Source of the DNA: an uncultured bacterium
GTDB lineage: Bacteria > Omnitrophota > Omnitrophia > Omnitrophales > Aquincolibacteriaceae
Length of the DNA stretch: 64,000 nt
NCBI GenBank assembly: GCA_964385615.1
Contig: CAYLPP010000012.1
Span: 16,865 to 80,864, forward strand
Reading direction: 5' to 3'
The notes under the pieces are model-generated. The model was not told the DNA's origin, did not search any database, and saw only the letters and a list, made by a program, of their open reading frames with translations. The stretch's first letter is position 1, and every line of letters begins with the position of its first letter. This document shows, piece by piece, positions 496-17,614 of this stretch. Made by a program: the position numbers and the translations under genes.

Positions 496-1410
496 TTAAT
501 GGTAATGGACCGTTTTACCGAAAAAGCGCCACTGGATCAGCGTAAAAATAAAAACAATGATAAAAAGCACCCACGCGATAGCCGCGGCATAGCCCATCTT
601 GTGCCACTGAAACGCGTTGTTAAAAAGATAATAGATCAAGGTCGTGGTTGAACCATTAGGTCCCCCGCCCGTCATAATATAAGCCGGATCGAAACCCGCC
701 TGGAAACCGCCGATCACGCTCATGATCGCGATAAAAAAAGTCGTGGGCGAAATCTGAGGCCAGGTCACAGCCCAGAATTTCTGCCAGGGGTTAGCGCCGT
801 CCACTTCCGCCGCATCATAAAGATCGCGGGGCACACCCTGAAGAGCGGCCAAATAAAGAATCATATTGTATCCGCCCACCGTCTGCCACACGCCCATGAT
901 AATCAGCGCCGGCTTGGCCCAGCTCTCATCCGTCAGCCATTGCGGGCCGTGAAGAGACAACCCGACAATTTCACCGAACCGGGAAATCGCCATATTCAGC
1001 ACACCGAACTCCGGGTTGTAAATCAGCCGCCACAGCATATAAATCGCGACGCCTGAGCAAAGCGTCGGTAAAAAGTAAACCGTGCGGAAGAAAACAATGC
1101 CTTTAAGCTTCTGGTTCATGGCCATTCCAAGAAGCAGTGAACCGGTCATGGAAAGCGGAATGCAAAGCATCATGTAAACCGTGTTCCAGGAATACTTCCA
1201 GAAATAGGGATCTCTCAAAAGCGAGATAAAATTATCAAGACCGACAAACTTCGGCGCGGACAAAAGATCCCAGTCCACGAAACTCAAAGCCATCGAAGCC
1301 ACAACCGGAATCAAAGTGAAAAGCATGAACCCGATAAAATTCGGCATCAAAAAGCCGTACCCTGCAACCGCTTCATTAAAGGAACTGGATCTAAGCTTGC
1401 TGTTTTTCAT
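496..1410 (-). CDS. carbohydrate ABC transporter permease (MalF/UgpA-type)
   Basis: 304 aa with multiple TM segments and an EAA-like loop ([23 protein letters not shown]). The start overlaps the clpX stop by 4 bp (ATGA). Confidence 0.8.
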
Positions 1411-2669
1411 GCCGACTTAACCCACTCCCCGCCTCGAAGCAGCGCCGGAGCCTGCTTGCCCTCGACCACTTCGCGCGAAACGATGCATTCGGAAACATTA
1501 CTTTCAGAGGGAATATCGTACATCACATCCAGCATCAAGGTTTCCAGGATAGAGCGAAGCGCGCGGGCACCCGTTCCCTTACGAATAGCCTTGCGGGCAA
1601 TTTCTTCAAGTGCGTCCGGCATGAACGTCAGTTTCACGCCTTCCATTTTAAAGAGCTCTTCATACTGTTTGATCAGCGCGTTTTTGGGTTCTTTCAGAAC
1701 ACGCACCAGGTCGGATTCATTCAAGGCGTGCAGCGCACCGGTAACCGCGAAACGGCCGATGAATTCCGGGATCAAACCAAACTTCATTAAATCTTCAGTT
1801 TCAACCCGTTCCAGCATCTCACCGACATTCTGAGGCTTACTGCTTTCCGCAGCCGGGGCGCCGAAGCCCATCGACTTATTGGAAACGCGGCGTTCAATAA
1901 TCTTGTCCAGATTCGAAAACATTCCTCCGCAAATGAACAGAATGTTTTTCGTGTTGATCTGGATATATTCCTGCTGAGGGTGCTTGCGCCCGCCCTGCGG
2001 AGGCACGTTAGCGACCGTTCCCTCCAGAATTTTTAAAAGCGCCTGCTGAACGCCCTCACCCGAAACGTCACGGGTAATGGAAACGTTTTCAGACGTACGC
2101 GCGATCTTATCGATTTCATCAATATAAATAATCCCCAGCTCAGCGCGCTTCACATCGAAGTTCGCGGCCTGAAGAAGGCGGAGCAGAACATTTTCAACGT
2201 CTTCGCCGACATAACCGGCTTCCGTTAACGCGGTCGCGTCAGCGATCGCGAACGGCACATCCAGAAGCTGAGCCAGCGTGCGCGCGAAAAGCGTTTTACC
2301 GGAACCGGTCGGCCCCATGAGCATAATGTTGCTCTTCTCAAGCTCAACATCGTCACTCTTACGGTTCTTAACCCGTTTGTAATGATTGTGAACGCAAACC
2401 GAAACCTGTTTCTTGGCTTTTTCCTGCCCGATGATGTACTGATCAAGCTTAGCTTTAATTTCGCGGGGCTTGGGAACTGAAAGGCCTTCGGAAACATCAT
2501 ACTGTTTAATGTAGCTGGGCGCGTCCTTGCTGAGGATGTCACCGCAGATGCGAATGCAGATGTCGCAAATATAGACCCCGGGCCCGGCAAAAATCTTTCG
2601 GACTTCCTTGCGCTTATCGCGGCCGCAAAAGGAACACCGTTCGGAAATCATCGGCGTTAATCTCCTCAA
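1407..2669 (-). CDS. clpX: ATP-dependent Clp protease ATP-binding subunit ClpX
   Basis: N-terminal C4 zinc ribbon ([10 protein letters not shown]...ICDICIRIC), Walker [18 protein letters not shown], Walker [11 protein letters not shown], and a sensor-2 box. Confidence 0.95.
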
Positions 2670-2806: not shown

Positions 2807-5800
2807 TTACGCCGCAGAACCAATGACCCGGCTGACCTTTTCTTCAAATAAAGCCTCGGCCAAGGCCGTATTGACCCCGAAGGCCAAACGCCCTCCGGAC
2901 TGGGTCAGCGTGATTAAGCTCTGAAAATCCCGCTCAAAAAGGTTCAAACGGCGCAGAAGCTCGTCGCGGATCTCCTGCGGTTTTCCCCTGTAGTTTTCAT
3001 CTTGAGAAAGATCGGCCATATGAATCAGGGCCCGGCTGACCACTTTGCCGATCCAACGGGCAGCTTCCGGATTTTTGCGCTGAAGCGCCTCAAGATCCGC
3101 AGGATTCAAAAACAACGGCAAAAACATTTCATTAATCGCAATCTTGCTGCCCAGAAACGCCGCCGGTACTTCCGCCTGCTCTGACTGAATGGCATTTGTC
3201 TTTTCTACGTGAACATCGCGGACCTGGATTGCCAAATCAGAAAGCCCCTTCCTGAAAACTTCAGGAACACGGCCGTCTTTCAAAAGCTCTCCAACAACGC
3301 CTTTATCCAGACCGCTTAAAAAGCCGGCCAGAAAATGATCATCTATCTTACCATCAGGAAGAACCAGGCCCACAGCGAATTTCCGGCTCACCGCGCCTGA
3401 GATTTGATCAAGTCCGGAATCCAGATCATTCATGACAGCCTGCACAGCATCAAAACGCGAAACATCCGCTTGCGCCAGCATTTTCAGCCGGAGAGCTTCT
3501 TTATTTTTACGGTACTGCGCAATTAAATCAGCAATCACGCTTTCATCAATCTGAACCGCCACGGCCCGGCTCTCATTTCCAGGCGCAAGTGCTTCGGCAA
3601 CCAGCTTTACCGCGTCGGCCTTAGGCGCGATTCTTACTTCAGAGCGGGCTGACAGCTCTGTTCTAAGATCACCCCAAGCATCATCCTCAGAAACCTGATC
3701 TTTAACTAAAACAGCGCCGGCTTCAATCTGAGCATACGAGGACCCGGAATTCGCCTGAGGCTGAATTCCCAAAATATCCTTTATTGAATATTTCCGGTAG
3801 CCTACACGGTACGCATCTTGAAATGAAACCACCACAGCGGGCAGTTCTTCATTCTTGAAAATTCCGCCATCCAGATTAGCCTTGCTCAAATAAATACCGT
3901 CCTCCGGATTAAAAACACCTTCAGGAGCGGTCTCTCCCGCTTCAAATTCTCTTTGGTTATATTCAATACGCCGGGGCGTAGGCGCGGAATTTCCATCGTA
4001 AGACCATTCATAATCAATGAAATACCGGTCTGCCGCCGCGTCTTTGGTAATTTTTACTTTGCCCATATCCACGCCCATGGCTTCAAGTTCCCAGAGAAGG
4101 GGCGCTTTGGCAAAACCAATGGCCCCTAAAACAAGCGTCGAGTTATATCCAAGCGCGGCTTTTTCGGACTGATACACTTCCCGCAAAAGTCGGAGTGTTT
4201 TTTCGTCAAGAGTTCCTTCAAACGGAAGCGCGTCAAAAATTCTGTAATAAGAAGAATCCGTGAGGTAGGAGGCCGTTTCAATGTCTCCGCCCCCCAAGGG
4301 GTTGACAACACGGCCTTGATATCCCTTTGTCTTCAGAAAATCACGCACTTTTACATATTTCTCAAGCCGGTCCCGGCTGATGAACCGGTTCCGTAAAACC
4401 GCGGGATTCGCGGGAAAATTCGAAACCTTGAAGTTTCCCGAAGCCGTTAAGTTGGAAAGCTGTTTCCGGTATTCCGCAATTTGAGCGTCTGAAGTCAGAT
4501 AACGTTGGTTCACTTCATTGACCACCCGCACGACGGATGGAACCAAAACGGACGCTTTCGCTTCAGGGAAATACTCAACGGCAATACCGCGTATCGACTG
4601 AGTTTTAAGCGTGGCAGGTGCGGAAGTTTGTTTCACGCGCATCGCTGGCAGCGCGTCGGCAGTACGATCCGCGTAACCGTCTTTTAGGATTCCTTCCTTT
4701 TTCAGGAGACGAATCAAATAGGTCTGGACGTCGGGTTTAAAATTAATCGGTTCAGAGACCGCGGAGACGCGTTTGGCGGTCGCCAGCTGCTCCAAAACAT
4801 AAACAGCCATAGCAGCTTCACGCAAATTTTCAGGAACCGTTTGATCAATAATTTCACGAGCGAAAGAGACATTCAAAAGAAATTGCTCTAAAATTCTCGT
4901 CTCCTCCGGTGCGGCTCGAACTTCGGAGCGGGTGAAGGAATTTAAAAAATTTCCAAGCTTCTCCCAGTCGTGCATGACTTTACGCGTGCGTGTTTTTTTA
5001 ATACCGTTCCAAAACTTGACCGGCGCGTTGTCTGAAACTGCTCCGATTGGAGTATTTTCAAGCGCCGGCTGTATGCCGGGCTGGTCCGCAGCCTGAATAA
5101 GTTCCATCAGGCTCAAAGATCTCTGAACCGATGTCTCCCTCGAATTTCTGCTGTAATACCCTGAAAAGAAATCCCATTGGAAGGCCAGGAGAAAAGGCAG
5201 GCCCGCGGCATATTCACGGCTTAAATCCTGATGCCACTCATAAAGTTTTCCGGCATTAGCCTGAATGGCCGCTTCAAGCTCATCAAAATAGGGCTGTCCC
5301 GCCAGCTCTCGCCGTGTTTTCGCGAGTTCTCCCGTAAATCTCTTTTTTCCAGGGCCGGCTAAAACAGGGCTCAAGCTGAAAATGACTTTCAGTAGCGAAA
5401 TTTTCAGGAGTTTTCGAACTGATCCCTGGTTTTCTTTCGTCACTTCGGCCAACTGATCTTTAGACAACTGCGCGATAACCCAGAGCACGTCGGGCGAGAA
5501 AGCTTCGACATCTTCGTTGTCCAGCCAGGAATGAAACTCCAGAGAACCCTGCACATGAAAAGCGGCTGCAAGAAGACTGAACGCTGTCAGAGTGTAAGCG
5601 TACTCGCCTGGCGCGTACCGGAAGCGCCGTGAAAAATCAATGTAATCGCTGACAGCATCATCTCCATGAAAATACGAAAAAGCCATGCTGAATAATTCGG
5701 AGAGAGTCAGTTTATTATTTTGGGGAAATTTTTTACCAAACTTTGTAAGAATCAGCTCGAGCGCCGCGAATTGTTTCGCGTTAAGCTGATCCAGCAGAAC

Positions 5801-8800
5801 AATCTGGCCGGCATTCTTATATTGTTCTGCCTGTTCACGGGCATTCAGCGGACCATCGAGCACAAGCAGGGCCAGCCCTTCCAGCACCAGCTGGGCATAG
5901 TCGGCATCTGAAAGTTCGCTGTGATAATCTTCTTCACTCTCAAAGCCTGTACCGTGGACGGACTCAAAAATCGCGGCGCGGCTATCATAATTGTGAAAAT
6001 AAAGACGTTTGCCGTTATCCGACAGGTTTTCATAAATTTGTCTGGCAATTCTGAAATACCCTTTACCGTCGAGAGAATTCCACTGCCGGTTCACGGAATT
6101 AATTAATTTTGAATAATCAACCCGAATTTCGGAGCGTGCGTCATTTCGCGGCCGGCCGAGTCCGCCCTGCTCAATTCCAATTTCCGAATACGGAATATTA
6201 TGGTCTCTGATCGCTTTTCTGATCTGCCGTGAAGTTAACCCTGACGCTCTGGCAACATTCGCAACCGTTCTGCGAAGTTTCGGATCGAGTCCTTGCGCAA
6301 GCCCTCGAAGATAAACGACCCACTCTTCGCGGCTTCTCTGAATAATTCTTTCTCGCACCATTCCCACGGAAGAGCGCGAAATTTTGTGGTGAGACATCGC
6401 GCCGCGGATGGCGGCGGCGTCCAATTCTCCATTTGAAACAGCCGCAACGTTTTCAGGCGTAGGGGCTTGTCCTTTTTCAAGCTTTGCGACAAGTTTCGTC
6501 AAATAGGTGCGCCATTCTTCTTCCGTCCGCGCGCGCATTTCGGAGCGGAGCGCGCTATTCCTTTCAGATGCCGCGGGAGACTCATTATTCCGCTTTAATT
6601 TTTCAAGCATTTCGCTTAACTCAAGGAAAGCGCTCTCATTTATATCTCCCCGGGAATATCTTTCCTTTAAATCAGATTGAGTAGCGTCAATATTTAAACG
6701 GCTCATATCAATACGCCTTAAAAACCCAGCCTCTTCAGCTACTTTAAGCCCTTTGAAACCAAGAGGGGCTATCGCGGCAGCTTCATCAGAAATACTAGCG
6801 CCTAATTGGTCATTCTCCGCGCTAAGGGCATAGTCCAGCCCGGTTTCACTGACAAGCCAATTATTGGGTAAATCAAAATATAAAGTTACTCCGTCGCTTG
6901 GCGGTTTTATGTTTCCATTATGGAAAATATACCGTAGAGGCATTGCATATAAACCGTGCTGAAGTATGGTTGGCAGATATCGAATATTGGTATTATGAAG
7001 AACTAATGTAGTTCCACTAGGGCTTGCGGGATGTTTTTCTTGCCCCAATGAAATTTCCGATATTAGAAACGAATAGATTGTTTGGCCTTCCGAAAATTTC
7101 TTCCCTATAAAAACCTTATAGGGGCCACCGGGGGGCATTTTCCAATGCAGGGGCAACAGTTGAGCAACCATTGTTTGCCTAAAGGTCGCCTTATCCGCGA
7201 TTGCTCCTTGGAAAAGCCAAAACGGAAGCACTAAAATTTTATCATTTTCGCCTGTATTTTGTTCTACCCAGCCGTATAAATCATCTATTTCCGAAAAGTC
7301 TTGTGCGGTAATTTGCAGGGAGCTGGAAGAAATGCTTTTATCAGACCGCACTTCAGATCTCGCGGGCTTTGTAAAAAGATATTCCCCGACTTTCTCATCA
7401 ATGGGAGCAACCTCAAAAGAAATGGTTCTAAAAGCTCTGAAAAACTCATCGTCTATACGGCTGTAAGGAATAATCAGCGCGCGTCCCCCGGGCTTTAAGA
7501 CACGGTTAATCTCGAGGGCCGTTTCGTAGTAAGCCATTACCGGTTTATCAATAATCTGATACCAGTAAGCAGGATCAAAAAGACCAACACTGATAACCAG
7601 GTCCACGCTTGAGTCTTCAAACGGCATTTTCTGAGCCACACCCTTTACGTAAAAGCCGGCAGGTTCCGCGGGGGCATTCGGGTCAAGTCCCACAATATCT
7701 TTACCTTGCTTGCGGAGTTCGGTAACCAGATTCATAGGAGTCAATATATCGGGAGCAAAAAGACCTTCACTGTCGGTTTCGAGCCCGATGTCCACGATTT
7801 TTCCGGAAAGAAGTTCATCAACTGAAATCCCGAGTTTTCTTTCAATCTGTTTAGCCGTTAACTGAAAATGCGCCATATGAATGGAGGAATTCATCCGCGC
7901 TTCGGAGCGGGCGGGAAATTTTGAAACCCATTCCCCCACAGTTTTGGCATCCTTCGAAAAAGTTTCATCATCAGACAATTCCCGGCTGTAACCCGCGGGA
8001 AGCTGATGACCCAAAGTCAGAACGGGAATTTTCGCGAAAGACGTCAAGAACGCTTCGCGCTTCATACCTTTCACCGATACATAAGCATCGTCCAAAATGG
8101 ATTCTTCGGCTGCTCCGGAAATCCCTTCGTGAGTCTTAACATCTCCCAATGCCCGCGAAGAATCCAGGAAGATGACAAATTCCACGGGGTGGACATCGTC
8201 ATCCTCAAGAACGGGCAGGGGTTTCTCGGCGGCGGGACCCTCCCCGATATGTTTGTATTTTGTGACAACCGTCTCAGGCAGAAGGTTCCCGACGGCAACC
8301 GGCTGGCCTTGCTGATTCAGCATGACATAAGTATTTTCATCATCATCCGCAAGAATTTTAAAAGCCGGCGCTCCGGAACGATTCGACAAATAATAAGCCA
8401 GCGTTGATTTTCCGGTATCGGAGGGCGCCATGATAATTCCTGTTTTTCCCGTCACGGAATCCTGAACTAAACCCGCGTGAAGGATCGCTACAGGCCGGTC
8501 CTGCCACCGGGTTAACTCTTGAACACCTTCTAAATCTTTTTCGGTCTCAGCTTTTTTAATGACGGTCTGCCACATGAGAGACCGTATGGTTTCGTAAACC
8601 GGTTTTTCCGGCCGGGCAAGCCCGTCAAACCACGGGAAATTTGGATCAAAGCTATAAGGATCTTTTCTTAAAGAATTATCTCCGTTTCCAATCACATCCA
8701 GAAACCAGTCCACCTTGTACTTTTTCAGTACTGCGACCTGAGCCTTGCCTAAAGGGAAACCGTTAAAATCCGTGATTGCCGGCGAAGCGGATTGATCCGC

Positions 8801-11800
8801 GCGAAGTTCGGAACGGACCATTGTGATATTCGCCAAAGTTCCCGTAACGTCAATTTCAAAATGCATACGCCCTTCACGCATTAAATCCTGAATCTGCTTC
8901 AATGTTTGACGGGCAGTTTCCGAACTCAAGGAAATCGGCTGACTCTGACCTTCAAGCTGAATCTCGGTGACTCCTTTGGCGGCCAGTGCGTCCGCGAGAT
9001 TTTCTTTTTCAAGATCCACGAAAGGCTTCTTTTCATCCCAGGTACTCAAAAAGCGCTCATACCGTTCCTTCCACGCAGGCACAATGCGGTTCACAAACTC
9101 CCCACCTTTTCTCGCGAACTCCGCCTCTTTCAAAGCTCCGAGTCCGGTCAAGTGCGGAACAACCATCGCGCTCGCCAGCTGAATGGTCGGAATGACGGCT
9201 TCAACCGTCATCTGATTTTTACGCGACGCATCGAGAAACTTTTGAAAAAGATTATTCGTGTACTGCAGGATATGATCCTGCTCATCGGGTCTCAAAGTCT
9301 CAAGGCTGGCGTAAAAAGCCGCGCTTAAAAGCAGAATCTGGCGCTCTTTCTCAGAAGTTCCCGCGAGAGTGCGTCCATTGATAAAAACAACCCACCCGGA
9401 AGATTGAGGGAAAAGAATATTTTCGTACCCGGCCTGGTGAAAAATAGTGCCGACATTCTGAAATGCCTTATCGCCCGCGGGAATCACCGATAAACCCGCC
9501 TGACGTTCCTTGAGTGCGGTATTCAAAACCGAAATAACCGCGGGGTCGTTATAAACATAAACACCTGTATCAAGTCTCACACCGTAGCGCCTGTCGATCG
9601 GCTCAAGGGTGCGGCTTTCGGAACGGGAAAGAACACGAATCGCCGTTGAAGAAGACTCGATTAAATCCAGAATTTCATCCGGCCGGCCCATTACGCCCAG
9701 AGAGTGATCTTCCCAGTGGTTTCTTAAATAATAAGCAAGATCTCCAAGCAGATTTAGCGCGCGGGTAAATTGACCGGCTAAAAACTCGTCTTTAACCGTG
9801 TCAAAAATTCCGGAGCGTTCTCCGTCCCAGGCAGATAGAATTTCTTTGGCGCGCTTAAGATCATGCAGTAATTTTTCAGCGCTGGATCCGCCCGGAACCG
9901 GCGTTTTAAAAAAACGGGAGAACTCCCCTGTCGGCCGAACGCCGGGGGCAAGCGTCACAAGAGCGAGAATATCTTCGCCATAACCAGGAACTTCAGACAT
10001 GGAGTAATCACTGCTCCGGCCGATGGCTTCATACATTTTACGCGCGTCCGCGGAACGGTAGTTAGCCGAATACCAGCGCTGAACCGCACCGCTCCTTAAA
10101 AGCAGTTTGATCGCGCGCTGCATATACCCTTTGCCTGTAATCACGCTTTTCAAATCGGGTGCCAGCACTTCCCAATCCCTGCCGTTTTCACGGTAAGCCA
10201 GGCTGGCTTTGGCGGCGAGTTCCCTTGAAGTCCGGTCAAAAACAAGAAGGAAATACTGATCTTCATCATACCCGTAGGGCGTCGGCATTTCTGATCGCAC
10301 CAAAATGACATGAAGATCTTTAAACTCCTCTGAGAACTCCGGTCCGTCTACGAGAAGAGCGATTTCATTCCCTTTGGATTTTTCAGTTTTTGGATATTCC
10401 CGGACAAGCACCGCCTGATCTGAATCATTCAAAGCGCGGACTTCCGACCGCGGTGAAACGAAATAAACAACTCCCGTTCGAGATTCTTTCAGGTAAGCCG
10501 TATGAATTGAAAATTCATCGACATTCATATCTTCCCGAAGATCAAAACGAAGATTCGCGCGGTCCGCGATAAAGGGAACCGCCTGCTTGTAGGCCGAGAT
10601 AAGCGTTTCACCCAGATCGTTAACGATCAGATAGCTTCCGGAAGGGCTGATTGACTTTAGCGCCGTCAAAAAAATGTCGCGCATTCTTTGAATTAAATAA
10701 GGGAAGACTGCTGCCGGCGCGAAGTTTGAGTACAAAGAGTATTCGACTGAACGGTACACGGGGTTCATCATTGCCAGCGCGAAAATATAATCGTAGTGTT
10801 TCCCTTTCAGCTCACTGTAGCTTTGGTAAGCGGGAATTTCCTGGTCCAGACCAAAGCCTCTGTGAAGTTCTACCTGAAAAGACAAATATTCTGAGTCAGG
10901 CTCAAGAACCGACGTTTTTAAACCGAGTTTTTCCAAAACCACCGGAAGGTAATCGCCGCTTCCAGGGCCCAAAACCAGCGCGGTTTTACCGGCTTCCAGC
11001 TTCAAACTTTTCAGTTTCTCAATAAGTCTCTGCTGGGTCTGATCATCAAAATCAGTCAGCCCGGAATGCGCGGCCACTTCCTCAATGACCGCGGAAATTT
11101 TCTCTTGCGTCACGAGTCTCGATTCGGAGCGGGCGGAAGCCTGTTTTCTAAAAACGGCCCACTCGTAACCTGAAACAGGATCCCACGGATCGCGCTCCTT
11201 TGAAACCCAGGATTCTTTTCGAATTCTGCCCAAGGGAATCAAAATCCGTTTTCTCTCCGCAACAGAAGCTTGAGGTTCCGCGCGGGCATAAATAGCCGCC
11301 TGCGAAACCAGAACCTTTCCGCCTTCAGCGGTTGCTTCCAGGATTTTGTTCCAAAAAGCAGTTTCATGCGCCAAATCTCCTCCCCACCCGGCATTTTTAA
11401 CGATTGAGAAATCTCCCTGAACCTCTGCCTCTTCATATTTTTTAGGCACAAGAACAACTTTAACTTCCCGGCCGGTAACCCGGTGTTTAAGCGTGAGAGT
11501 TAAATCCTCCCCCTTCTTAAGCGTTTCTTCCCAGCTTTTATAAAAACTGAAATCCCAGTAATTCTCAATTTCAAAGTCTCCGCTCCTGAGCCAGTCAATG
11601 GAGAACCCGACAGAAATCCGGGCAAGTTCTGAATAAGAGGGATCCACGAGATAAATCGTCTCAAGTCCCGGGAAAAGAGAAACCATCAGAGAGAGCGTTT
11701 CATTATCTTTGCCCGAAGCCAGGTAAACACCTTTTTTAGGCTCAAATTTTTCTTCCTGGAATAATTGTTTCATTTCAGGAATCCAGTCTCGCTCACCAGC

Positions 11801-14800
11801 ATTGATCCGGTCTTCCGTTCTGAGTTCGGAACGGGCCGGCAGCGCAATCACCTGAGACGCTGGATTCGCTTCCGACTCTGTACTGACTTCCGTCCCAGCC
11901 AAAATCAGCTGATCGCCGGACCGTTGGTAAAGATCCCAATCCACGACCGGTTTATCGAAAGCGTTTGTTCCAATATTGATGTTGTAAATCTCTCCGCCGT
12001 CACGAAGAGCGGTTCCCATCTGCTGGAGGGCTTTATTAATAGTTTCATCTGAAAAATAACTGACCCGGCCCCGGACCAGCAGGCCGGAGACACGCATAAA
12101 ATCGTATTGCTCCGGCAAAGGCAGAAAAATATCCTGGCGTTTAAACTCGAGAATGTCCGGATGCAGGCGGGCAAACTCTTCGGCTTCAGGGCTTAGCAGA
12201 CTCACATAAGGAAGCTTCTCTTTTCGAACACTATCCATTTTTCCAAAAATCCGGGTACCTGACTCAGCAAGCGCGTTCCAGGCGGTCGATCCCCGTTTCA
12301 CAATTCCGGATTTTTCGGTCACAATCTGAAGGAGTTCCCCTGAATCGCTAAAAAGATAAACCGCGAATTCTCCCTGCACCACATAAAAACCCAGAGTCCG
12401 GTCATAGCCGGTAATCTTGACGCCTTTATCCTGATAATGACGCGCCAGCTCCAGAGTGGTCACGCCTTCAGAAACCGCGAAATCGGCAATTTTTAATTTT
12501 TTATCTTTGTTTTCAGATTTCTCCATAAAACGGTCGAGCACCGCAAAGGTGCGGTCAAGCCTTCCCGGCCAGGTGCGTCTGTTGATAATATCCGCTTTTC
12601 CATCCGTTCCGCCTTCCCGAAAAATGACCGCCTGAAACTGAATTTGCCGGAGAATCTTCAGAAGGTCTTTTTGTTTTTTTCCTGAAAGTTTCGGATAAAG
12701 TTCTCGAAGGCGGGCGTAGGTCAATAAATTGCCGTTATAGGCGAAAATGGTCACTAAGAGTTCATATTCTTCAGAGTCCGCGTCCGCGGCCAGGAAAAAA
12801 GGAATTAAACTTTCGACATTCTGATTGTAAAGCTGTTCAGCCGCGCTCGCCATTTCCGAAAGCCGCGGTTTGGAAAATCTTTCAAGAGGAGATGTTCCTC
12901 TTAGCAATTCAGCTTCTTCACGCAAAAACTCGGGGAACGGCATCCGAAGCTCAGAACGAGCACCCTGGACTTTCTCGATTGAAATTTCAGGAAGACTTTC
13001 AGCCTGAGGAATCGTTCTTCTAAAATCGACGGGTCCTTCGTCCCAATTGATCAGCGCTTTAAAATTCAGGCCCGCGTAGAATTTCTCCGCGTCTTTACTT
13101 ACATTCTGAAGAATAAAGTTTTGAATTCCCTGCCGTTGAGCCAGCATCATAAGCGTGATCATCAAAGCCCGGCCGGCACCGCGGTATTGCCCGCGGACCG
13201 ATTCAGAAACATACAAAGCTTCCGAAAAAGCTGAGGCGATGCCATCTTCAGGCGCGTGCAGAAAAGAAAACGATTCCTGCATTTCAACCCGGTCGCGGTA
13301 AAAACGGGCGTGGGCAAAGCCCGCTTCCCGCGGGCCGGCTTCAGTCATTTGAAAAACTCTAAGCCGGTAACGCTTGAAGGTAATAACATCTTCTATCGAA
13401 AGCTGGAATTCGAAGACTGAACCATCATCCGCCGTAATGCTGAATTTTCCGCCGGTTTCAGGATCCAGAGAGTTCAGAATCTCAGCGCGCAGTTCAGAGC
13501 GCTTGGGATAAGTCAGGCCTTTCTGAACGCGGAAATTAAGAATCCTGCCTCCCTGGGGCTCGCGCTGACCGGGCGGAACATGAATATTAATGGAGTGAAG
13601 CGGGCCGGGTCTTTTAGTCTCACGGGTCAAATCGATTTTGATCAGCTTGGGTGAACGAAATAACGGAACCTGATGAGAAAATCTTTCAAAAGTTCCCGGC
13701 CTCTGCGCGTCTTCGTAAACAAACGTGATAATAACGGGCGGTTCCTGCTCAAAATCTTCTCCGGGATTCGGCGCCGCGGCCTCATTCCACAAGGCAATTT
13801 TAAATTCATCCATATCCCCCAACGGCCGGCCGTCTTCCCGGCTTAGAACAATATCCACCGGAGGAAGACCGAAACGGGTTGTAATCTGAAAACCGCTGGA
13901 AGGATCATGTTTAAACGGCACTGTATCAAAAAGAGGCGGCGTTAAAACCCGGACCGATGAATCAAACTTCTGAAGGTCTTCGTCGCCGAAATCATCCGTC
14001 AGGCTGACCGCAGGGTCCAGCACTTGAACGTTTACAGAGGGTTTGGGAAGATTTTTATTTCCCCCGCTTGAATCAAAATACCAGTATAAAACTCCGCCAA
14101 CCGCAAGCATTAACGATACAGCAAGAAGGAGAATTCCCCCAAAATTAAGGAACCTGGCTGAAACCACATCCGCCTGCTTCCGCGCGGAAGATTTCAGATT
14201 GGACTCTGCCAAAAGCAAATAGATCAGAAAGAGCCCTGAAAAAATCTTGCTGTTCTCCGGATCAATGGAAACTTCCGGAAGTGTGAGGGGCTGCTCCGCC
14301 TGCCCGCCGGACAAAGTAAAGTGAAACCGGACGCGCCCTTCTTCCGCGGTCAAATAAAACGGACTGGCTTGAGTTTCGTTTAACCCCAGTTCCCGGCGGA
14401 TCAATCCGTTTAATTTCTCCGCGAAATCTTCCGGGGAAGATCCTTTGATTTCCTCTCCCCCGTCATCATTTCCATCAAGCGGCTTCTTGCGCAATTCCAG
14501 TTTCAACTCGTCACCGGCCCACGCGCCCTTTTGAACAATCAACAAACGGTCCGGATCATATTGCAGGCTCCAAAGCGCGCCGTCGTGGTGCCCCATAACG
14601 CTGAATTTTTTCCATGCCGGATTGAGTTTCTTTAAAATCGAGTCGATTTCGGAGGCCGCCGTCCAGACAGGCTCCCAGTCTTTACGCTCCTTAAATATGG
14701 ACGTCTCCGATAAAACAGTAACGGCTCGGGCCAATTTCTCCTGATCCGCCTCACCCTGCATCCGCAATTCCGAACGGCGAAATTCAACGACAAGGAGTCC

Positions 14801-17614
14801 TGGTTTATCGCGGATATTAACCGCTTCAACTGAATCGACCGTAAATCCGTTTTGAGTCAAAAAAGCCCGGACTTCCTGTTCATCCTTGAACACCTGCCCC
14901 AGATGAGAGACAAGCGCGTCAATTTCCCGCGAAGGAACATTCAAAGCGATTCCCGCCTGTCTTAAAAAACCTTCGCCTGCCTCTTTTTCCTCAAACGGCG
15001 CGTAGCGGGAAACATAGTCAAAATATTCCTGATACATTTGCGCCAAAATACTATCGACGTCAGAACTGACCACGGTAAAAACAGGGTTCCACCGCTGTAT
15101 ATTCTGCTTCACAATAAACATCGCCTTTGCTCCCAGTTCAGCGGAATGAGGCTTCAAGCTTTTACTCATAGCGTCAAGATACGTTTGAGCGGTGCTTTCA
15201 TATTCATCCAAAGAAACCGCCCGATCTAAAAGGCGCCGGGTTAAGTTAAGAAATAAAATGCTCTGCCTAAGATCGTTAAACTGAAATTGACGGGAGGTAT
15301 CGATCGCAGAATTTTTAACATGAAATCCAAAAAGAAAACGGGCTCTGGGAGCGGCTAAACTTTTCAGCACTTCGAGAGTTTTTAAACGGTCCGTGTATTC
15401 AAAAGAATAAAGTCCGTAAATCAAATCCTGAGGGTCTTTCACGTCAAGTGAAGTCACCTCTTCAGCCGGTTTTACAATGACATTAAAACCCGGACGCATA
15501 ATGTTGCGTATCCGGCCCTTATCCAGCGAAGGTTCAATCACTGTGATCGGGTAATGCTGGTCTGAATCAAGCTCCTCTCTCAAATCCATAGAAACGGATA
15601 AATCTCCGTCGCCAACAGCCAGAATACGGGCCTGACCCCCGGCCAGAGAAACCAACCGCTTGACCATCGCCGTTTGTGAGATAACCGATACTTCATCCCG
15701 CGAGTCACGAGGCACTCCAACAAAATCATTAGTCAGCTCTCCCCAGGCCTGAATTAAACGATTTGAAGCCCGGAGTTCGGAGCGGGATTTAAGATCAAAC
15801 AGGTCCCGGGTTAGTATCGCCGCACCGCTGACACGAGGGATAATATTGGAAGATTTAAAGAGGTTGAGAACCTCAGGCGTGTTTAAACGATTTTGAGAAT
15901 CCAGAGTTTTCATTTTGAGAAGAAAATTTTCTATATTTTCTTTCCACTTTAGGCTGAAGCCGTCCGCAGACTCAGAACGAAAGACTTCGTCAAGATAACG
16001 GAGATACTGCCCCGCTTGTCCGGTTTTTTCTTCCGAAGCAAGATCGCGGATAATCTGATCCCGCCAAGTCTTCAGAAGTATGGGGTTTTCAGAGCCCGCC
16101 TTTAAAAGCTGATCCCGGAGAGCCCGGGTGAAACCCTCAGAAACCGACAGTTTGCCGTTTTCAGGCTTTAAATAACCTTTCCACGAAATCTCGCCGTTCA
16201 TCTGAGAGCGGTAAATGGAATCGTCGGGCATCGCGTTAATCGCGGGAATAACCGTGATATAAGAAATCCCGTTCTCCCGCAGCTGTTCCTTCAGTCCGGC
16301 GGTATGAAAACCGCCGGCAACCATCACGGCCTGATTTCGGCCGTTTTCACGCATCAGCCTCTGAAGATTCTTAAAGAAAGCGCGGTCACGCTGTTCCGCG
16401 TTTTGATAGAAAGCTGAGCTTGTTTCAAACCGCCCTTCTTTTTTAATCTTTTCCCAACCTTCACGGCTAAGTTCAAGGCGCACCGCTTTTTCCTGAAGGT
16501 CAAGCAGCTCACTCTCCCGGTCGAGCTTTCTTTCTTCGTTGTTGCGGAAAAGCTTTTCCTTCGCGTCACCCGCGTATTTTTCAAATTCGCGGAAAACCCG
16601 GGTTCCTTCCATTTCGCGCAGACGCGCTTCATGCCTGGCCTGACGCTGAAGTTCCGGTGAAAGCGAAAAAGGAATACTGTATTTTGAAGCTGTTTCTTTG
16701 AGATACATCAGAAAAGACCGGGCGGACAGCGTTGAGGTTTTAAAAGCCTGGAGGGATTCGTTGAATTTCCTCAGATCTTCCTCAGAGAATTTGTTCAAAA
16801 AGGAGGTGAAACTGTCAGAAATTTTTAACACCTTCGTTTCAAATGAGGCATCTGCCGGCATCTGGATTTCCTTGATGAGAGCTTCAAGATCTGATCCTTT
16901 TTCCGGCGGCAAGATAAGAGCGAGCTGTTCAAGTATCTGCGAAAAATTTTCTGCGTTTTCTGAAAACTTCCGCAGGGACTGGTCGAGATCAAAAAGTGGC
17001 TGAGAATAAATTTCCTTTTTCTTTTTTTCAAGGACTTCAGCGCGTGCGTGATTCTCTTTTGAAAGAACCGGTTCTTCAGCCATCGTCTGAGAGTAGAGAT
17101 TTAAGCCGTCTTCGTAAAGATTCCAGTCTTCAGCCCCGTGATAAACCGCGGGCGTGTTCCCCAAAAGAGCGGCCGCGGCTCCGCCGGGCAATTCCCCCTT
17201 TTCCATGAACGCTGAAAGAACTTTTTCAAGCTGACGCTTTTCCGGAAAATTTTTAAAAATCCGGGCATCCAGCTCTGAAGAAGCGCCTTCCAAAGCCACG
17301 ATTGAAATCCCGTAATTTTCTTCAAAATGGCTGATCAGATTCTGAATGTTCTTTTGCGCTTCCGGCACTGAGTGAGCGTCTTGAATAAGAACGACGGTCT
17401 GGCCGGACGAACCCTGGTAGGAATCTTCAATGCTTCCACTCTCGCCCGGAACTGAAACCTGTCCAATTTCCCCCGGAAACTTAGCTCCAGCAACTGAGGA
17501 AGGACCCGCCGGTGCCGCTATAGCTGGAAAAGGCTTCGCTCCCGTGAGCAGAAAGCTCAGAGACAAAGCTAGCGCGATTGTTTTATGTAAAAAATTTTTG
17601 ATTTTTTGAGGCAT
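2807..17614 (-). CDS. giant (4935 aa) secreted/membrane-associated multidomain protein. It has an N-terminal signal peptide and a TraB/GumN-like region, then several class-I SAM-methyltransferase-like modules, a GNAT-like module and an HprK-like P-loop module. Fifteen R-S-E-x-R linker motifs punctuate it.
   Basis: A single uninterrupted ORF of 14.8 kb. The N-terminus MPQKIKNFLHKTIALALSLSFLLTGAKPFPAIAAPA looks like a signal peptide. Motifs recognised by eye:
- TraB/GumN-like: VVLIQDAHS ... AVMVAGGFHTAGL.
- MTase motif I and post-I-like: ARILAVGDGD, KIADFAVSEGVTT...LRDGGEIY, ALVLGPGSGDY...PSGSYLIV, VDLVISVGLF...INRVLKPGGRALI.
- GNAT-like: YRGAGRALMITLMMLAQRQGIQNFILQNVSKDAEKFYAGLNF.
- HprK-like: LHAGLVQDSVTGKTGIIMAPSDTGKSTLAYYLSNRSGAPAFKILADDDE.
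- Hydrophobic TM stretch: FGGILLLAVSLMLAVGGVLYWYF.
Domain calls are from motif inspection only. Confidence 0.85.
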   Translation of the reverse strand: MPQKIKNFLHKTIALALSLSFLLTGAKPFPAIAAPAGPSSVAGAKFPGEIGQVSVPGESGSIEDSYQGSSGQTVVLIQDAHSVPEAQKNIQNLISHFEENYGISIVALEGASSELDARIFKNFPEKRQLEKVLSAFMEKGELPGGAAAALLGNTPAVYHGAEDWNLYEDGLNLYSQTMAEEPVLSKENHARAEVLEKKKKEIYSQPLFDLDQSLRKFSENAENFSQILEQLALILPPEKGSDLEALIKEIQMPADASFETKVLKISDSFTSFLNKFSEEDLRKFNESLQAFKTSTLSARSFLMYLKETASKYSIPFSLSPELQRQARHEARLREMEGTRVFREFEKYAGDAKEKLFRNNEERKLDRESELLDLQEKAVRLELSREGWEKIKKEGRFETSSAFYQNAEQRDRAFFKNLQRLMRENGRNQAVMVAGGFHTAGLKEQLRENGISYITVIPAINAMPDDSIYRSQMNGEISWKGYLKPENGKLSVSEGFTRALRDQLLKAGSENPILLKTWRDQIIRDLASEEKTGQAGQYLRYLDEVFRSESADGFSLKWKENIENFLLKMKTLDSQNRLNTPEVLNLFKSSNIIPRVSGAAILTRDLFDLKSRSELRASNRLIQAWGELTNDFVGVPRDSRDEVSVISQTAMVKRLVSLAGGQARILAVGDGDLSVSMDLREELDSDQHYPITVIEPSLDKGRIRNIMRPGFNVIVKPAEEVTSLDVKDPQDLIYGLYSFEYTDRLKTLEVLKSLAAPRARFLFGFHVKNSAIDTSRQFQFNDLRQSILFLNLTRRLLDRAVSLDEYESTAQTYLDAMSKSLKPHSAELGAKAMFIVKQNIQRWNPVFTVVSSDVDSILAQMYQEYFDYVSRYAPFEEKEAGEGFLRQAGIALNVPSREIDALVSHLGQVFKDEQEVRAFLTQNGFTVDSVEAVNIRDKPGLLVVEFRRSELRMQGEADQEKLARAVTVLSETSIFKERKDWEPVWTAASEIDSILKKLNPAWKKFSVMGHHDGALWSLQYDPDRLLIVQKGAWAGDELKLELRKKPLDGNDDGGEEIKGSSPEDFAEKLNGLIRRELGLNETQASPFYLTAEEGRVRFHFTLSGGQAEQPLTLPEVSIDPENSKIFSGLFLIYLLLAESNLKSSARKQADVVSARFLNFGGILLLAVSLMLAVGGVLYWYFDSSGGNKNLPKPSVNVQVLDPAVSLTDDFGDEDLQKFDSSVRVLTPPLFDTVPFKHDPSSGFQITTRFGLPPVDIVLSREDGRPLGDMDEFKIALWNEAAAPNPGEDFEQEPPVIITFVYEDAQRPGTFERFSHQVPLFRSPKLIKIDLTRETKRPGPLHSINIHVPPGQREPQGGRILNFRVQKGLTYPKRSELRAEILNSLDPETGGKFSITADDGSVFEFQLSIEDVITFKRYRLRVFQMTEAGPREAGFAHARFYRDRVEMQESFSFLHAPEDGIASAFSEALYVSESVRGQYRGAGRALMITLMMLAQRQGIQNFILQNVSKDAEKFYAGLNFKALINWDEGPVDFRRTIPQAESLPEISIEKVQGARSELRMPFPEFLREEAELLRGTSPLERFSKPRLSEMASAAEQLYNQNVESLIPFFLAADADSEEYELLVTIFAYNGNLLTYARLRELYPKLSGKKQKDLLKILRQIQFQAVIFREGGTDGKADIINRRTWPGRLDRTFAVLDRFMEKSENKDKKLKIADFAVSEGVTTLELARHYQDKGVKITGYDRTLGFYVVQGEFAVYLFSDSGELLQIVTEKSGIVKRGSTAWNALAESGTRIFGKMDSVRKEKLPYVSLLSPEAEEFARLHPDILEFKRQDIFLPLPEQYDFMRVSGLLVRGRVSYFSDETINKALQQMGTALRDGGEIYNINIGTNAFDKPVVDWDLYQRSGDQLILAGTEVSTESEANPASQVIALPARSELRTEDRINAGERDWIPEMKQLFQEEKFEPKKGVYLASGKDNETLSLMVSLFPGLETIYLVDPSYSELARISVGFSIDWLRSGDFEIENYWDFSFYKSWEETLKKGEDLTLTLKHRVTGREVKVVLVPKKYEEAEVQGDFSIVKNAGWGGDLAHETAFWNKILEATAEGGKVLVSQAAIYARAEPQASVAERKRILIPLGRIRKESWVSKERDPWDPVSGYEWAVFRKQASARSESRLVTQEKISAVIEEVAAHSGLTDFDDQTQQRLIEKLKSLKLEAGKTALVLGPGSGDYLPVVLEKLGLKTSVLEPDSEYLSFQVELHRGFGLDQEIPAYQSYSELKGKHYDYIFALAMMNPVYRSVEYSLYSNFAPAAVFPYLIQRMRDIFLTALKSISPSGSYLIVNDLGETLISAYKQAVPFIADRANLRFDLREDMNVDEFSIHTAYLKESRTGVVYFVSPRSEVRALNDSDQAVLVREYPKTEKSKGNEIALLVDGPEFSEEFKDLHVILVRSEMPTPYGYDEDQYFLLVFDRTSRELAAKASLAYRENGRDWEVLAPDLKSVITGKGYMQRAIKLLLRSGAVQRWYSANYRSADARKMYEAIGRSSDYSMSEVPGYGEDILALVTLAPGVRPTGEFSRFFKTPVPGGSSAEKLLHDLKRAKEILSAWDGERSGIFDTVKDEFLAGQFTRALNLLGDLAYYLRNHWEDHSLGVMGRPDEILDLIESSSTAIRVLSRSESRTLEPIDRRYGVRLDTGVYVYNDPAVISVLNTALKERQAGLSVIPAGDKAFQNVGTIFHQAGYENILFPQSSGWVVFINGRTLAGTSEKERQILLLSAAFYASLETLRPDEQDHILQYTNNLFQKFLDASRKNQMTVEAVIPTIQLASAMVVPHLTGLGALKEAEFARKGGEFVNRIVPAWKERYERFLSTWDEKKPFVDLEKENLADALAAKGVTEIQLEGQSQPISLSSETARQTLKQIQDLMREGRMHFEIDVTGTLANITMVRSELRADQSASPAITDFNGFPLGKAQVAVLKKYKVDWFLDVIGNGDNSLRKDPYSFDPNFPWFDGLARPEKPVYETIRSLMWQTVIKKAETEKDLEGVQELTRWQDRPVAILHAGLVQDSVTGKTGIIMAPSDTGKSTLAYYLSNRSGAPAFKILADDDENTYVMLNQQGQPVAVGNLLPETVVTKYKHIGEGPAAEKPLPVLEDDDVHPVEFVIFLDSSRALGDVKTHEGISGAAEESILDDAYVSVKGMKREAFLTSFAKIPVLTLGHQLPAGYSRELSDDETFSKDAKTVGEWVSKFPARSEARMNSSIHMAHFQLTAKQIERKLGISVDELLSGKIVDIGLETDSEGLFAPDILTPMNLVTELRKQGKDIVGLDPNAPAEPAGFYVKGVAQKMPFEDSSVDLVISVGLFDPAYWYQIIDKPVMAYYETALEINRVLKPGGRALIIPYSRIDDEFFRAFRTISFEVAPIDEKVGEYLFTKPARSEVRSDKSISSSSLQITAQDFSEIDDLYGWVEQNTGENDKILVLPFWLFQGAIADKATFRQTMVAQLLPLHWKMPPGGPYKVFIGKKFSEGQTIYSFLISEISLGQEKHPASPSGTTLVLHNTNIRYLPTILQHGLYAMPLRYIFHNGNIKPPSDGVTLYFDLPNNWLVSETGLDYALSAENDQLGASISDEAAAIAPLGFKGLKVAEEAGFLRRIDMSRLNIDATQSDLKERYSRGDINESAFLELSEMLEKLKRNNESPAASERNSALRSEMRARTEEEWRTYLTKLVAKLEKGQAPTPENVAAVSNGELDAAAIRGAMSHHKISRSSVGMVRERIIQRSREEWVVYLRGLAQGLDPKLRRTVANVARASGLTSRQIRKAIRDHNIPYSEIGIEQGGLGRPRNDARSEIRVDYSKLINSVNRQWNSLDGKGYFRIARQIYENLSDNGKRLYFHNYDSRAAIFESVHGTGFESEEDYHSELSDADYAQLVLEGLALLVLDGPLNAREQAEQYKNAGQIVLLDQLNAKQFAALELILTKFGKKFPQNNKLTLSELFSMAFSYFHGDDAVSDYIDFSRRFRYAPGEYAYTLTAFSLLAAAFHVQGSLEFHSWLDNEDVEAFSPDVLWVIAQLSKDQLAEVTKENQGSVRKLLKISLLKVIFSLSPVLAGPGKKRFTGELAKTRRELAGQPYFDELEAAIQANAGKLYEWHQDLSREYAAGLPFLLAFQWDFFSGYYSRNSRETSVQRSLSLMELIQAADQPGIQPALENTPIGAVSDNAPVKFWNGIKKTRTRKVMHDWEKLGNFLNSFTRSEVRAAPEETRILEQFLLNVSFAREIIDQTVPENLREAAMAVYVLEQLATAKRVSAVSEPINFKPDVQTYLIRLLKKEGILKDGYADRTADALPAMRVKQTSAPATLKTQSIRGIAVEYFPEAKASVLVPSVVRVVNEVNQRYLTSDAQIAEYRKQLSNLTASGNFKVSNFPANPAVLRNRFISRDRLEKYVKVRDFLKTKGYQGRVVNPLGGGDIETASYLTDSSYYRIFDALPFEGTLDEKTLRLLREVYQSEKAALGYNSTLVLGAIGFAKAPLLWELEAMGVDMGKVKITKDAAADRYFIDYEWSYDGNSAPTPRRIEYNQREFEAGETAPEGVFNPEDGIYLSKANLDGGIFKNEELPAVVVSFQDAYRVGYRKYSIKDILGIQPQANSGSSYAQIEAGAVLVKDQVSEDDAWGDLRTELSARSEVRIAPKADAVKLVAEALAPGNESRAVAVQIDESVIADLIAQYRKNKEALRLKMLAQADVSRFDAVQAVMNDLDSGLDQISGAVSRKFAVGLVLPDGKIDDHFLAGFLSGLDKGVVGELLKDGRVPEVFRKGLSDLAIQVRDVHVEKTNAIQSEQAEVPAAFLGSKIAINEMFLPLFLNPADLEALQRKNPEAARWIGKVVSRALIHMADLSQDENYRGKPQEIRDELLRRLNLFERDFQSLITLTQSGGRLAFGVNTALAEALFEEKVSRVIGSAA

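Follow-up and report, generated by a model that had tools for sequence, protein, structure and literature searches.

A recurrent R-S-E-x-R separator and an N-terminal TIKI-like module suggest a self-cut multi-effector polyprotein in Omnitrophota

MARTX toxins carry about 3-5 effector modules, RTX/glycine-rich repeats and a cysteine protease domain (CPD) that is activated by inositol hexakisphosphate and cuts after Leu, and they leave the cell by type I secretion with a C-terminal signal. Here we describe a protein of 4935 amino acids (aa) encoded in a 64,000-nucleotide stretch of DNA from an uncultured Omnitrophota bacterium (the window; GenBank contig CAYLPP010000012.1, positions 16,865 to 80,864). 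Like the MARTX toxins of Vibrio and relatives, it appears to be one very large secreted chain with several unrelated effector modules; unlike them, it has a candidate TIKI-type protease at the N-terminus and a strict R-S-E-x-R motif between modules, belongs to a family with up to 18 or more modules, and occurs in Omnitrophota. We propose, with a probability of about one half, that the chain is a polyprotein carrying several effectors, which is exported through Sec and which its own N-terminal TIKI peptidase cuts at R-S-E-x-R. Neither an RTX repeat nor a CPD family was found in the giant protein, for which Pfam and NCBIfam return methyltransferase and GNAT only, and a cysteine protease is impossible because the chain has no cysteine at all. 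The secretion route differs as well, with a signal-peptide-like N-terminus in 72/79 relatives and no type I secretion system genes recurring beside their loci. The built-in MARTX protease frees modules at linkers, and effector content is a mosaic between strains; RRSP, a MARTX effector, is itself a TIKI-fold, sequence-specific endopeptidase (PMC6254334).

Other precursors are also cut at recurrent sites. Gingipain/HagA of Porphyromonas gingivalis and the adhesins of Mycoplasma hyopneumoniae are surface or secreted precursors with an N-terminal protease or with adhesin domains, processed at Arg/Lys or S/T-X-F↓X-D/E sites to give several functional products; they consist of a few related adhesin modules, depend on a C25 cysteine peptidase or an unknown protease, and use other motifs and secretion routes. 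Phage and conjugative polyvalent proteins and viral polyproteins combine many unrelated enzyme domains in one giant chain that enters another cell and is known or presumed to be cut at short recurrent sites by a peptidase of its own, whereas the present gene is chromosomal, lies among housekeeping genes, and encodes a putatively Sec-exported chain with another enzyme and another motif. Closest in origin are the Omnitrophota giants (10.1101/2023.11.21.568195; PMC10066038; 10.64898/2026.06.07.730766), which share phylum, length, mostly unannotated sequence, signal peptides and tiled unrelated enzymes, among them methyltransferase, GNAT and HATPase domains (10.64898/2026.06.07.730766). Those studied are described as longer than 20-30 thousand residues, with many transmembrane (TM) helices and SecA-like, C39 peptidase, subtilisin or dockerin domains; the present family, in contrast, spans 1.3 to >6 thousand residues and has few hydrophobic segments and a defined separator. 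The 4935-aa protein lacks the features of the Archaeovorin/dockerin type (>30,000 aa, numerous TM regions, SecA DEAD-like, C39, dockerin; West-Roberts 2023). Processing via C39 or subtilisin domains was hypothesised by West-Roberts et al. 2023, who called cleavage points unknown (10.1101/2023.11.21.568195). Term searches of Omnitrophota giant-protein papers found no mention of a cleavage or separator motif, or of a TIKI or TraB module.

The giant open reading frame (ORF), whose product is identical to the NCBI-derived database protein P0005, and its 15 separators lie as follows, with (-) for the minus strand; P0006 (6157 aa, 18 motifs) is its closest relative.

2807..17614 (-): giant ORF, 4935 aa plus stop, ATG start; ORF scan of the window
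15770..15784 (-): separator 1, RSELR, aa 611-615; within the tail of the module-1 model (aa 593-615), which is of low confidence
14762..14776 (-): separator 2, RSELR, aa 947-951; aligned P0006 position RSETR
13487..13501 (-): separator 3, RSELR, aa 1372-1376; aligned P0006 position RSELR
12944..12958 (-): separator 4, RSELR, aa 1553-1557; motif scan
11819..11833 (-): separator 5, RSELR, aa 1928-1932; motif scan
11117..11131 (-): separator 6, RSESR, aa 2162-2166; motif scan
10436..10450 (-): separator 7, RSEVR, aa 2389-2393; motif scan
9611..9625 (-): separator 8, RSESR, aa 2664-2668; aligned P0006 position RSEMR
8801..8815 (-): separator 9, RSELR, aa 2934-2938; aligned P0006 position RSELR
7895..7909 (-): separator 10, RSEAR, aa 3236-3240; motif scan
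7346..7360 (-): separator 11, RSEVR, aa 3419-3423; motif scan
6533..6547 (-): separator 12, RSEMR, aa 3690-3694; motif scan
6122..6136 (-): separator 13, RSEIR, aa 3827-3831; aligned P0006 position RSEMR
4916..4930 (-): separator 14, RSEVR, aa 4229-4233; motif scan
3632..3646 (-): separator 15, RSEVR, aa 4657-4661; motif scan

A regular-expression scan returned exactly 15 RSE.R matches in the giant ORF, the number that the initial annotation had counted; all the peptides it listed are correct, and its DNA positions fall inside the 15-nucleotide motifs or a few bases off. Composition predicts 0.12 matches, 2000 shuffles averaged 0.12 and never exceeded 3, and the motif is absent from all other ORFs of 80 aa or more in every frame of the window. 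Motifs are 137-428 aa apart, with 611 aa preceding the first and 278 aa following the last. In the alignment of the 15 sites, conservation is confined to R, S, E, the hydrophobic or small residue after them and the final R, with mostly Ala at -1. Synonymous codons are mixed among the copies, with four in use for either Arg and three for Ser, as expected from the earlier view that conservation is at the peptide level, and the 12-mer attributed to five copies, GCCCGCTCCGAA, occurs only twice in the window, the 9-mer CGCTCCGAA being the one found six times (1.25 expected). The description of the site as dibasic-flanked was not supported either, the two Arg standing three positions apart rather than as a classical dibasic pair. 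RTEDR at aa 1932, a candidate sixteenth site, was rejected as it merely overlaps separator 5. The probability that the motif is a chance or compositional artefact, or that the ORF is not a real gene, is practically negligible: the general caveat that long ORFs in metagenome-assembled genomes (MAGs) can be assembly artefacts is all that favors it, against the expected count and shuffle maximum just given, a ~50-fold excess in the family, an NCBI-derived record, homologues at 240 loci, and a position among same-strand housekeeping genes.

Relatives were sought with the N-terminal 615 residues, giving 240 loci among GTDB species representatives, of which 80 were fetched. The named loci among these 80 are almost all Candidatus Omnitrophota MAGs, and the genomes often hold several paralogues, sometimes in tandem. 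In most of them the ORF that includes the N-terminal module runs to thousands of residues, and it usually has several motifs, up to 11 in 3701 aa. When 69 related giant ORFs (198,311 aa) were pooled, RSE.R was observed 283 times against 5.6 expected, a ~50-fold excess, RAE.R 60 times against 7.7, RTE.R 18 against 3.6 and RPE.R 17 against 3.8, for a total of 378 matches to R-[S>A>T,P]-E-[LVM]-R; the remaining position-2 residues were at chance level, and permuted control patterns were 10-40 times rarer. Some proteins use a single dialect (10 RAE.R in L025, 7 RTE.R in L002, 3 RPE.R in L004). Flanking genes of the same genomes hold ~13 motifs per ~163,000 aa with other giant ORFs set aside. In a logo of 375 sites, information is confined to the five motif positions, R, E and R being 100% identical; small residues are found at -3 to -1, S/T/A after the motif and then acidic residues, and a dip in hydrophobicity is confined to -5 to +9. 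This profile is that of a short linear motif within an exposed linker of only ~15 residues and low hydrophobicity. A role for its Ser as a self-cleavage nucleophile was rejected because Ala or Pro replaces it in ~20% of sites.

Codon usage at these sites bears on a reading at the DNA level, in which an in-frame microhomology, CGY-TCC-GAR-NTN-CGN, would serve as a recombination joint for cassettes exchanged between paralogues and the peptide would be a tolerated by-product. At the 283 RSE.R sites, the first Arg is CGC/CGT in 80% (41% background in the same ORFs) and Ser is TCN in 97% (68%), with TCC at 47% (20%) and AGY at 3% (32%). This skew counts for such a joint, as do shuffling and duplication exactly at motif borders, the several, partly tandem paralogues per genome, and the excess of CGCTCCGAA. 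However, synonymous variation is plentiful and the 12-mer is common to just two sites; position 4 accepts several hydrophobic residues, whose codons differ; R, E and R are invariant over 375 sites, yet Glu and last-Arg codons are near background; and 15 degenerate bases are very short for homologous recombination. We consider a mainly DNA-level role very improbable, and recombination at the motif could be a secondary consequence, not a cause, of the motif. The position-2 residues tolerated (S, A, T, P) are exactly the four NCN-codon amino acids.

The motifs divide the protein into 16 modules, among them, besides module 1, the following.

13487..14761 (-): module 3, aa 952-1376; motif-to-motif homologue of P0006 module 2, 26% identity
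12944..13486 (-): module 4, GNAT acetyltransferase-like, aa 1377-1557, 181 aa; just below Pfam cut-offs
10436..11116 (-): module 7, Rossmann-type (LVLGPGSGDYLP...), aa 2167-2393; sequence and HMMER matches
8801..9610 (-): module 9, aa 2669-2938; motif-to-motif with P0006 aa 4787-5062, 38% identity
7346..7894 (-): module 11, class I S-adenosylmethionine (SAM) methyltransferase, aa 3241-3423, 183 aa; Methyltransf_11, 33.7 bits, cut-off 21.2
6122..6532 (-): module 13, small helical, aa 3695-3831, 137 aa; several tandem copies in P0006
2810..3631 (-): module 16, C-terminal, aa 4662-4935; homologous to C-terminal modules of L026 and P0006

Evidence that the motif marks module borders comes from homology breakpoints. 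When family proteins were cut at the motif, many piece pairs aligned end to end (888/888, 318/318, 273/268, 358/358, 399/396) at 27-86% identity, often at different ordinal positions or as tandem duplicates, and 51% of homology-block ends lie <=25 aa from a motif, vs 13% for random positions. P0006 has modules 1, 3, 9 and 13 in common with the window protein, and its alignments to modules 3 and 9 begin and end exactly on conserved motifs, at 26-38% identity. With modules 6-9 as query, an exhaustive HMMER search of 1.84 billion representatives returned 35 proteins including the window protein, and match bounds followed the module borders (query positions 11-228 for module 6, ~224-463 for module 7, 731-1006 for module 9); module 8 had no match in this search. 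For module 7, which may be methyltransferase-like, ~28 library proteins match border to border, most of them internal to other giants and three being proteins of ~260 aa. These comparisons, with 69 pooled ORFs and the P0006 alignments, support the initial annotation in its view of the motif as a selected, peptide-level separator at module borders, and the motif is conserved in relatives. The placement of the motif in linkers rather than folded cores draws on the module-1 model only, together with composition and homology borders; a single-sequence AlphaFold2 (AF2) model of aa 3200-3900, covering three whole modules and four junctions, was uninformative at a predicted local distance difference test (pLDDT) score of 35.7, and homologue searches with the junction-spanning fragments aa 1339-1605 (GNAT) and aa 3200-3470 (methyltransferase) gave no matches.

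The cargo itself is diverse. Pfam, NCBIfam and PDB sequences give signal for segment 1 (erythromycin esterase/ChaN, sub-threshold), segment 4 (GNAT, near threshold), segment 11 (methyltransferase, above threshold) and faintly segment 5 (methyltransferase) and for no other segment, and the whole giant protein found nothing useful among PDB sequences; the claim that every inter-motif segment is enzyme-like does not hold, since only 3-5/16 match a known enzyme family. No paralogy was detected among the 16 window modules, and the protein as a repeat array was rejected for this reason. BLAST relatives in the 80 loci match module 1 alone, plus the C-terminal module in one locus, and the cargo is hypervariable. 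Among 148 cargo modules sampled from relatives, ~80% lack a Pfam match, and those matched are highly diverse enzymes of intracellular type, including HATPase_c, Fic, patatin, dCMP and MafB19-like deaminases, protein kinase, phosphatases, HD, GNAT, methyltransferases and DnaJ. On these comparisons, R-S-E-x-R recurs as a short site where units that fold and evolve independently meet, as would be expected of a polyprotein.

Several further observations concern individual modules. Within the sample from L001-L077, motif-bounded cargo that is unexpected in a secreted chain comprises an intein splicing domain, two MarC-family integral membrane modules, an RNA polymerase alpha CTD and DnaJ. Module 3 has a strongly hydrophobic, TM-like segment (FLNFGGILLLAVSLMLAVGGVLYWYF, aa 1155-1180, 14075-14152 (-)), its P0006 homologue has hydrophobic stretches too (by eye), and module 3 could be a membrane-inserting or translocating module; a second hydrophobic window, at ~aa 4069 in module 14, makes two in the whole giant protein. 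In the alignments examined, the module-13 repeats of P0006 (aa ~4400-4790) have a separator after the last copy only; therefore separators can apparently be gained or lost within repeats. Module L049_m9 equals L056_m8 plus m9.

The only module common to the whole family is the N-terminal one.

15770..17614 (-): module 1, TIKI-superfamily-like hydrolase module, aa 1-615
17372..17380 (-): D79-A80-H81 of the invariant IQDAH; corresponds to RRSP E3900-x-H3902
17288..17290 (-): E109, invariant, 28 residues past H81; corresponds to RRSP E3930, Bcr135 E113
16388..16390 (-): R409, invariant; matches R4001 of RRSP, the basic residue conserved in TIKI proteases
16304..16306 (-): H437 of the invariant GGFH, 28 residues past R409; corresponds to RRSP H4030

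The TIKI superfamily includes Tiki1/2, TraB/PrgY, RRSP, HopBA1, erythromycin esterases, ChaN and GumN. Its active site, as described for the sequence-specific endopeptidase RRSP, comprises E3900-x-H3902, E3930, H4030 and the basic R4001, with H85/E113 equivalent in Bcr135 (PMC6254334); the general set is 2His/2Glu plus a basic residue, with E-x-H on a single strand, a Glu ~28 residues after it and an Arg ~29 before the second His (PMC6254334). Module 1 has this set in the same order and spacing, except that the first acidic residue is Asp, not Glu. In 64/64 members, IQDAH (77-81), A86, E109-G110, Y167, F402-Y403, R409, GGFH (434-437) and Y468 are invariant, and Q87, D116, E141 and E162 are kept in 98%. 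An AF2 model from a five-sequence alignment (pLDDT 73.6) is confident in its core, and the first motif falls in a disordered tail, aa 593-615; the predicted fold is alpha/beta, with a parallel beta-sheet core between helices as in TIKI proteins, and a ~240-residue helical insertion separates its two halves. Profile evidence is weaker: module 1 scores 19.3-20 bits with Erythro_esteras (cut-off 26.4) and 13 bits with Cofac_haem_bdg (cut-off 27.7), TIKI-clan Pfam matches at E < 0.1 occur in only 3/45 members, a profile of 45 N-terminal modules found no significant TIKI match in PDB sequences and Pfam, and a Foldseek search of module 1 against PDB was non-significant. Because no TIKI-clan model reaches its gathering score and the family profile finds no TIKI chain among PDB sequences, module 1 is best called a new divergent family with membership in TIKI at the superfamily (fold) level only, and its activity is predicted. 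In the papers searched, no TIKI member was described as polyprotein-processing or as having R-S-E-x-R specificity. The initial annotation had named a TraB/GumN-like N-terminal module as the possible processing enzyme; the assignment stands by predicted fold and catalytic-residue spacing, and the processing role can be proposed from sequence comparison.

Module 1 and the motif are found together. Giants that share cargo with the window protein and have the TIKI module (P0006, P0015, P0026, P0037) contain 6-18 R-x-E-x-R sites and 1-6 cysteines, whereas those that share cargo and lack it (P0010, P0011, P0012, P0014, P0021, P0027, P0028, P0031, P0035, P0036) contain 0-3 sites and 15-83 cysteines, a normal Cys content. 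Within the family, the first motif always stands after the TIKI module. The TIKI-less giants have repeats of their own: R-x-S-[AST]-S-G occurs 15 times in P0010, 5 times in P0014 and 4 times in either of P0011 and P0023, with ~3 expected over all eleven proteins together, and borders module-7-like cargo at both ends in P0010 and P0011 and on the C-terminal side in P0014 (MDO8536410.1, annotated Candidatus Omnitrophota). P0027 repeats (F/S)SSP(V/I) and P0036 repeats ITTVPPGTFPETETRGGVTRDK, and the N-termini of these TIKI-less giants consist of a signal peptide and then a ...S(T/A)LAP...-like sequence. That the same cargo stands behind different separators, and that separator type tracks the N-terminal module, is the strongest comparative argument for an enzyme-substrate pair.

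The motif may instead be cut by another protease, either a trans-acting periplasmic or surface enzyme of the bacterium or one of the host or prey, with the TIKI module otherwise employed, e.g., as an esterase or peptidase on the target cell. Two Arg suit many Arg-specific proteases, the evidence for an exposed, module-bounding linear site serves this explanation equally, L080 and L064 have TIKI without the motif, so that the module can exist without such a substrate, and no covariation between dialect and TIKI sequence was found. Nevertheless, we regard it as distinctly unlikely, given that motif and TIKI tightly co-occur, that TIKI-less giants with homologous cargo use other separators, that no conserved neighboring protease gene was found around the 80 loci, and that a prey protease would hardly impose one strict pentapeptide phylum-wide.

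The initial annotation had left a polyprotein and a docking linker side by side. An uncleaved motif would be a structural hinge, or would be docked or recognized by a partner such as the TIKI module, a chaperone, part of a secretion or translocation machinery, or a modifying enzyme, within one giant multi-enzyme chain. Conservation, linker position and co-occurrence indeed show recognition by something family-linked, not cutting, and one module has a TM-like segment; Omnitrophota giants have been detected as peptides and are discussed as single surface proteins (PMC10066038). However, docking or hinge elements usually constrain over five residues or show a signature in secondary structure, and the flanks of this motif are uninformative; 15 unrelated, motif-bounded modules shuffled between paralogues form the pattern of cargo meant for separation; and it is the enzyme module itself that always precedes the first motif. 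An uncleaved element thus seems unlikely, the co-occurrence of TIKI module and motif favoring a self-cut polyprotein over a docking peptide, with cleavage as its putative step.

For the polyprotein cut by its own peptidase, export is suggested by the N-terminus.

17513..17614 (-): N-terminal Sec-type signal peptide or anchor (MPQKIKNFLHKTIALALSLSFLLTGAKPFPAIAAPAG); sequence inspection and hydrophobicity

An equivalent hydrophobic, signal-peptide-like N-terminus is present in 72 of the 79 relatives by inspection and hydrophobicity, the basis of the call here too. The giant protein has 0 cysteines, vs 0.92% Cys in the other 45 window ORFs (P ~1e-20), and the TIKI/R-S-E-x-R family is Cys-poor as a whole (mean 0.13%). 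The Cys-free chain of signal peptide, TIKI hydrolase module and 15 unrelated cargo modules would be exported by Sec; the TIKI module would then recognize and cut each R-S-E-(L/V/M/I/A/S)-R, in cis or in trans; and the single modules so released would work as effectors at or inside host or prey cells, in keeping with the predatory or parasitic lifestyle inferred for Omnitrophota. SAM-, acetyl-CoA- and ATP-dependent enzymes in a Cys-free chain behind a signal peptide would likewise fit delivered effectors over periplasmic metabolism.

The motif, its enrichment, its border position, its conservation in the family, the TIKI-like predicted fold and residues, and the co-occurrence of TIKI module and motif are observed; from these we infer cleavage, TIKI as the cutter, the position of the scissile bond and the effector role. 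Several points weigh against self-cleavage. Evidence for the TIKI fold is no more than moderate, and not all members of that superfamily are proteases. L080 (3846 aa) and L064 (1226 aa) have an intact TIKI catalytic set and no R-x-E-x-R. The position-2 dialect shows no covariation with TIKI residues beyond a weak hint at position 163 in Ala-type proteins, and codon usage at the sites is skewed towards CGY-TCC. As to the exceptional loci, L034 (3980 aa) has an intact TIKI catalytic set and only two R-x-E-x-R, L080 has a hydrophobic segment and coiled-coil-like region after module 1, and L064 has a degenerate MSEMR where the first site is expected.

The other end of the chain also has a recurrent sequence.

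2810..2824 (-): C-terminal tail ...IGSAA-COOH; comparison of C-termini

In complete family ORFs the last residue is A in 17/19, and nearly all end in [AS]-A, an ending present in just 10/301 flanking ORFs. Family C-termini have an amphipathic helix and then -[K/T/S]-[A/S]-A-COOH (e.g., ...IGSAA, ...RKAA, ...LSAA), the -[AS]-A ends being those of L002, L005, L010, L012, L017, L019, L022, L025-L028, L033, L046, L048, L063, L066 and L073. The same type of tail occurs in P0006, P0010-P0012, P0014, P0015, P0023, P0024, P0026, P0028, P0031 and P0035-P0037, and so in most TIKI-less giants too. It is reminiscent of ssrA-type ...LAA degrons, which are targets of ClpXP and tail-specific proteases, and may be an ssrA-like degron or else a sorting signal. 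The domains preceding the tail have no detectable homology across the family, and a universal C-terminal domain was rejected, with the tail alone in common and an iterative hidden Markov model search staying at the window protein, L026 and P0006. The next gene downstream on that strand, 138 bp from the giant gene, is clpX (1407-2669 (-)), which is suggestive beside an ssrA-like tail; a ClpX-like neighbor does not recur in the clustered flanking ORFs of related loci.

Around the giant gene, the window encodes an ABC permease, ClpX, GHMP kinase, HisG, ZIP transporter, TsaD, GatB, GatA and an ECF sigma/anti-sigma pair. The giant gene is set among housekeeping genes on the same strand, and the locus is bacterial chromosome and no mobile element. 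Clustering of flanking ORFs revealed no secretion system, protease or immunity gene shared next to the loci across all 80. Synteny is kept in one sub-clade alone (L047, L049, L055, L056, L057, L059, L060, L067, L071), as a same-strand block with products of ~485, 617, 335 and 1005 aa, up to 5.5 kb upstream. Family genes are often in tandem, as at L019, L036, L045, L052 and L070, where another giant ORF rich in motifs ends just upstream on the same strand (at L036, one with 14 motifs in 3170 aa), and some family ORFs are split by a frameshift or stop, with continuations at L043 and L065.

Omnitrophota are uncultivated and probably predatory or parasitic, and giant, mostly unannotated proteins are a hallmark of the phylum. 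Missing cleavage-point information is reported to have kept West-Roberts et al. from dividing such proteins for structure prediction (10.1101/2023.11.21.568195). The separator described here provides an immediate rule for splitting giants into domain-sized units, for structure prediction and function discovery, and a strict, phylum-wide separator with a built-in TIKI-type hydrolase makes a concrete, cheaply testable hypothesis. If true, it would give the TIKI superfamily a new substrate specificity and biological role, mean that bacteria invented self-processing multi-effector toxins a second time, independently of MARTX, and open a large reservoir of new effector domains. More tentatively, and with a probability that we put below one half, Omnitrophota may possess phylum-wide, "punctuated" secreted polyproteins, a bacterial counterpart of viral polyprotein processing, built from dozens of interchangeable, mostly novel modules with a common -[AS]-A tail and at least two separator dialects, R-S-E-x-R with TIKI and R-x-S-[AST]-S-G with another enzyme, the separators being both cut sites and in-frame shuffling joints. 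Should this be so, the separators would be the first rule for dividing Omnitrophota giants into functional products.

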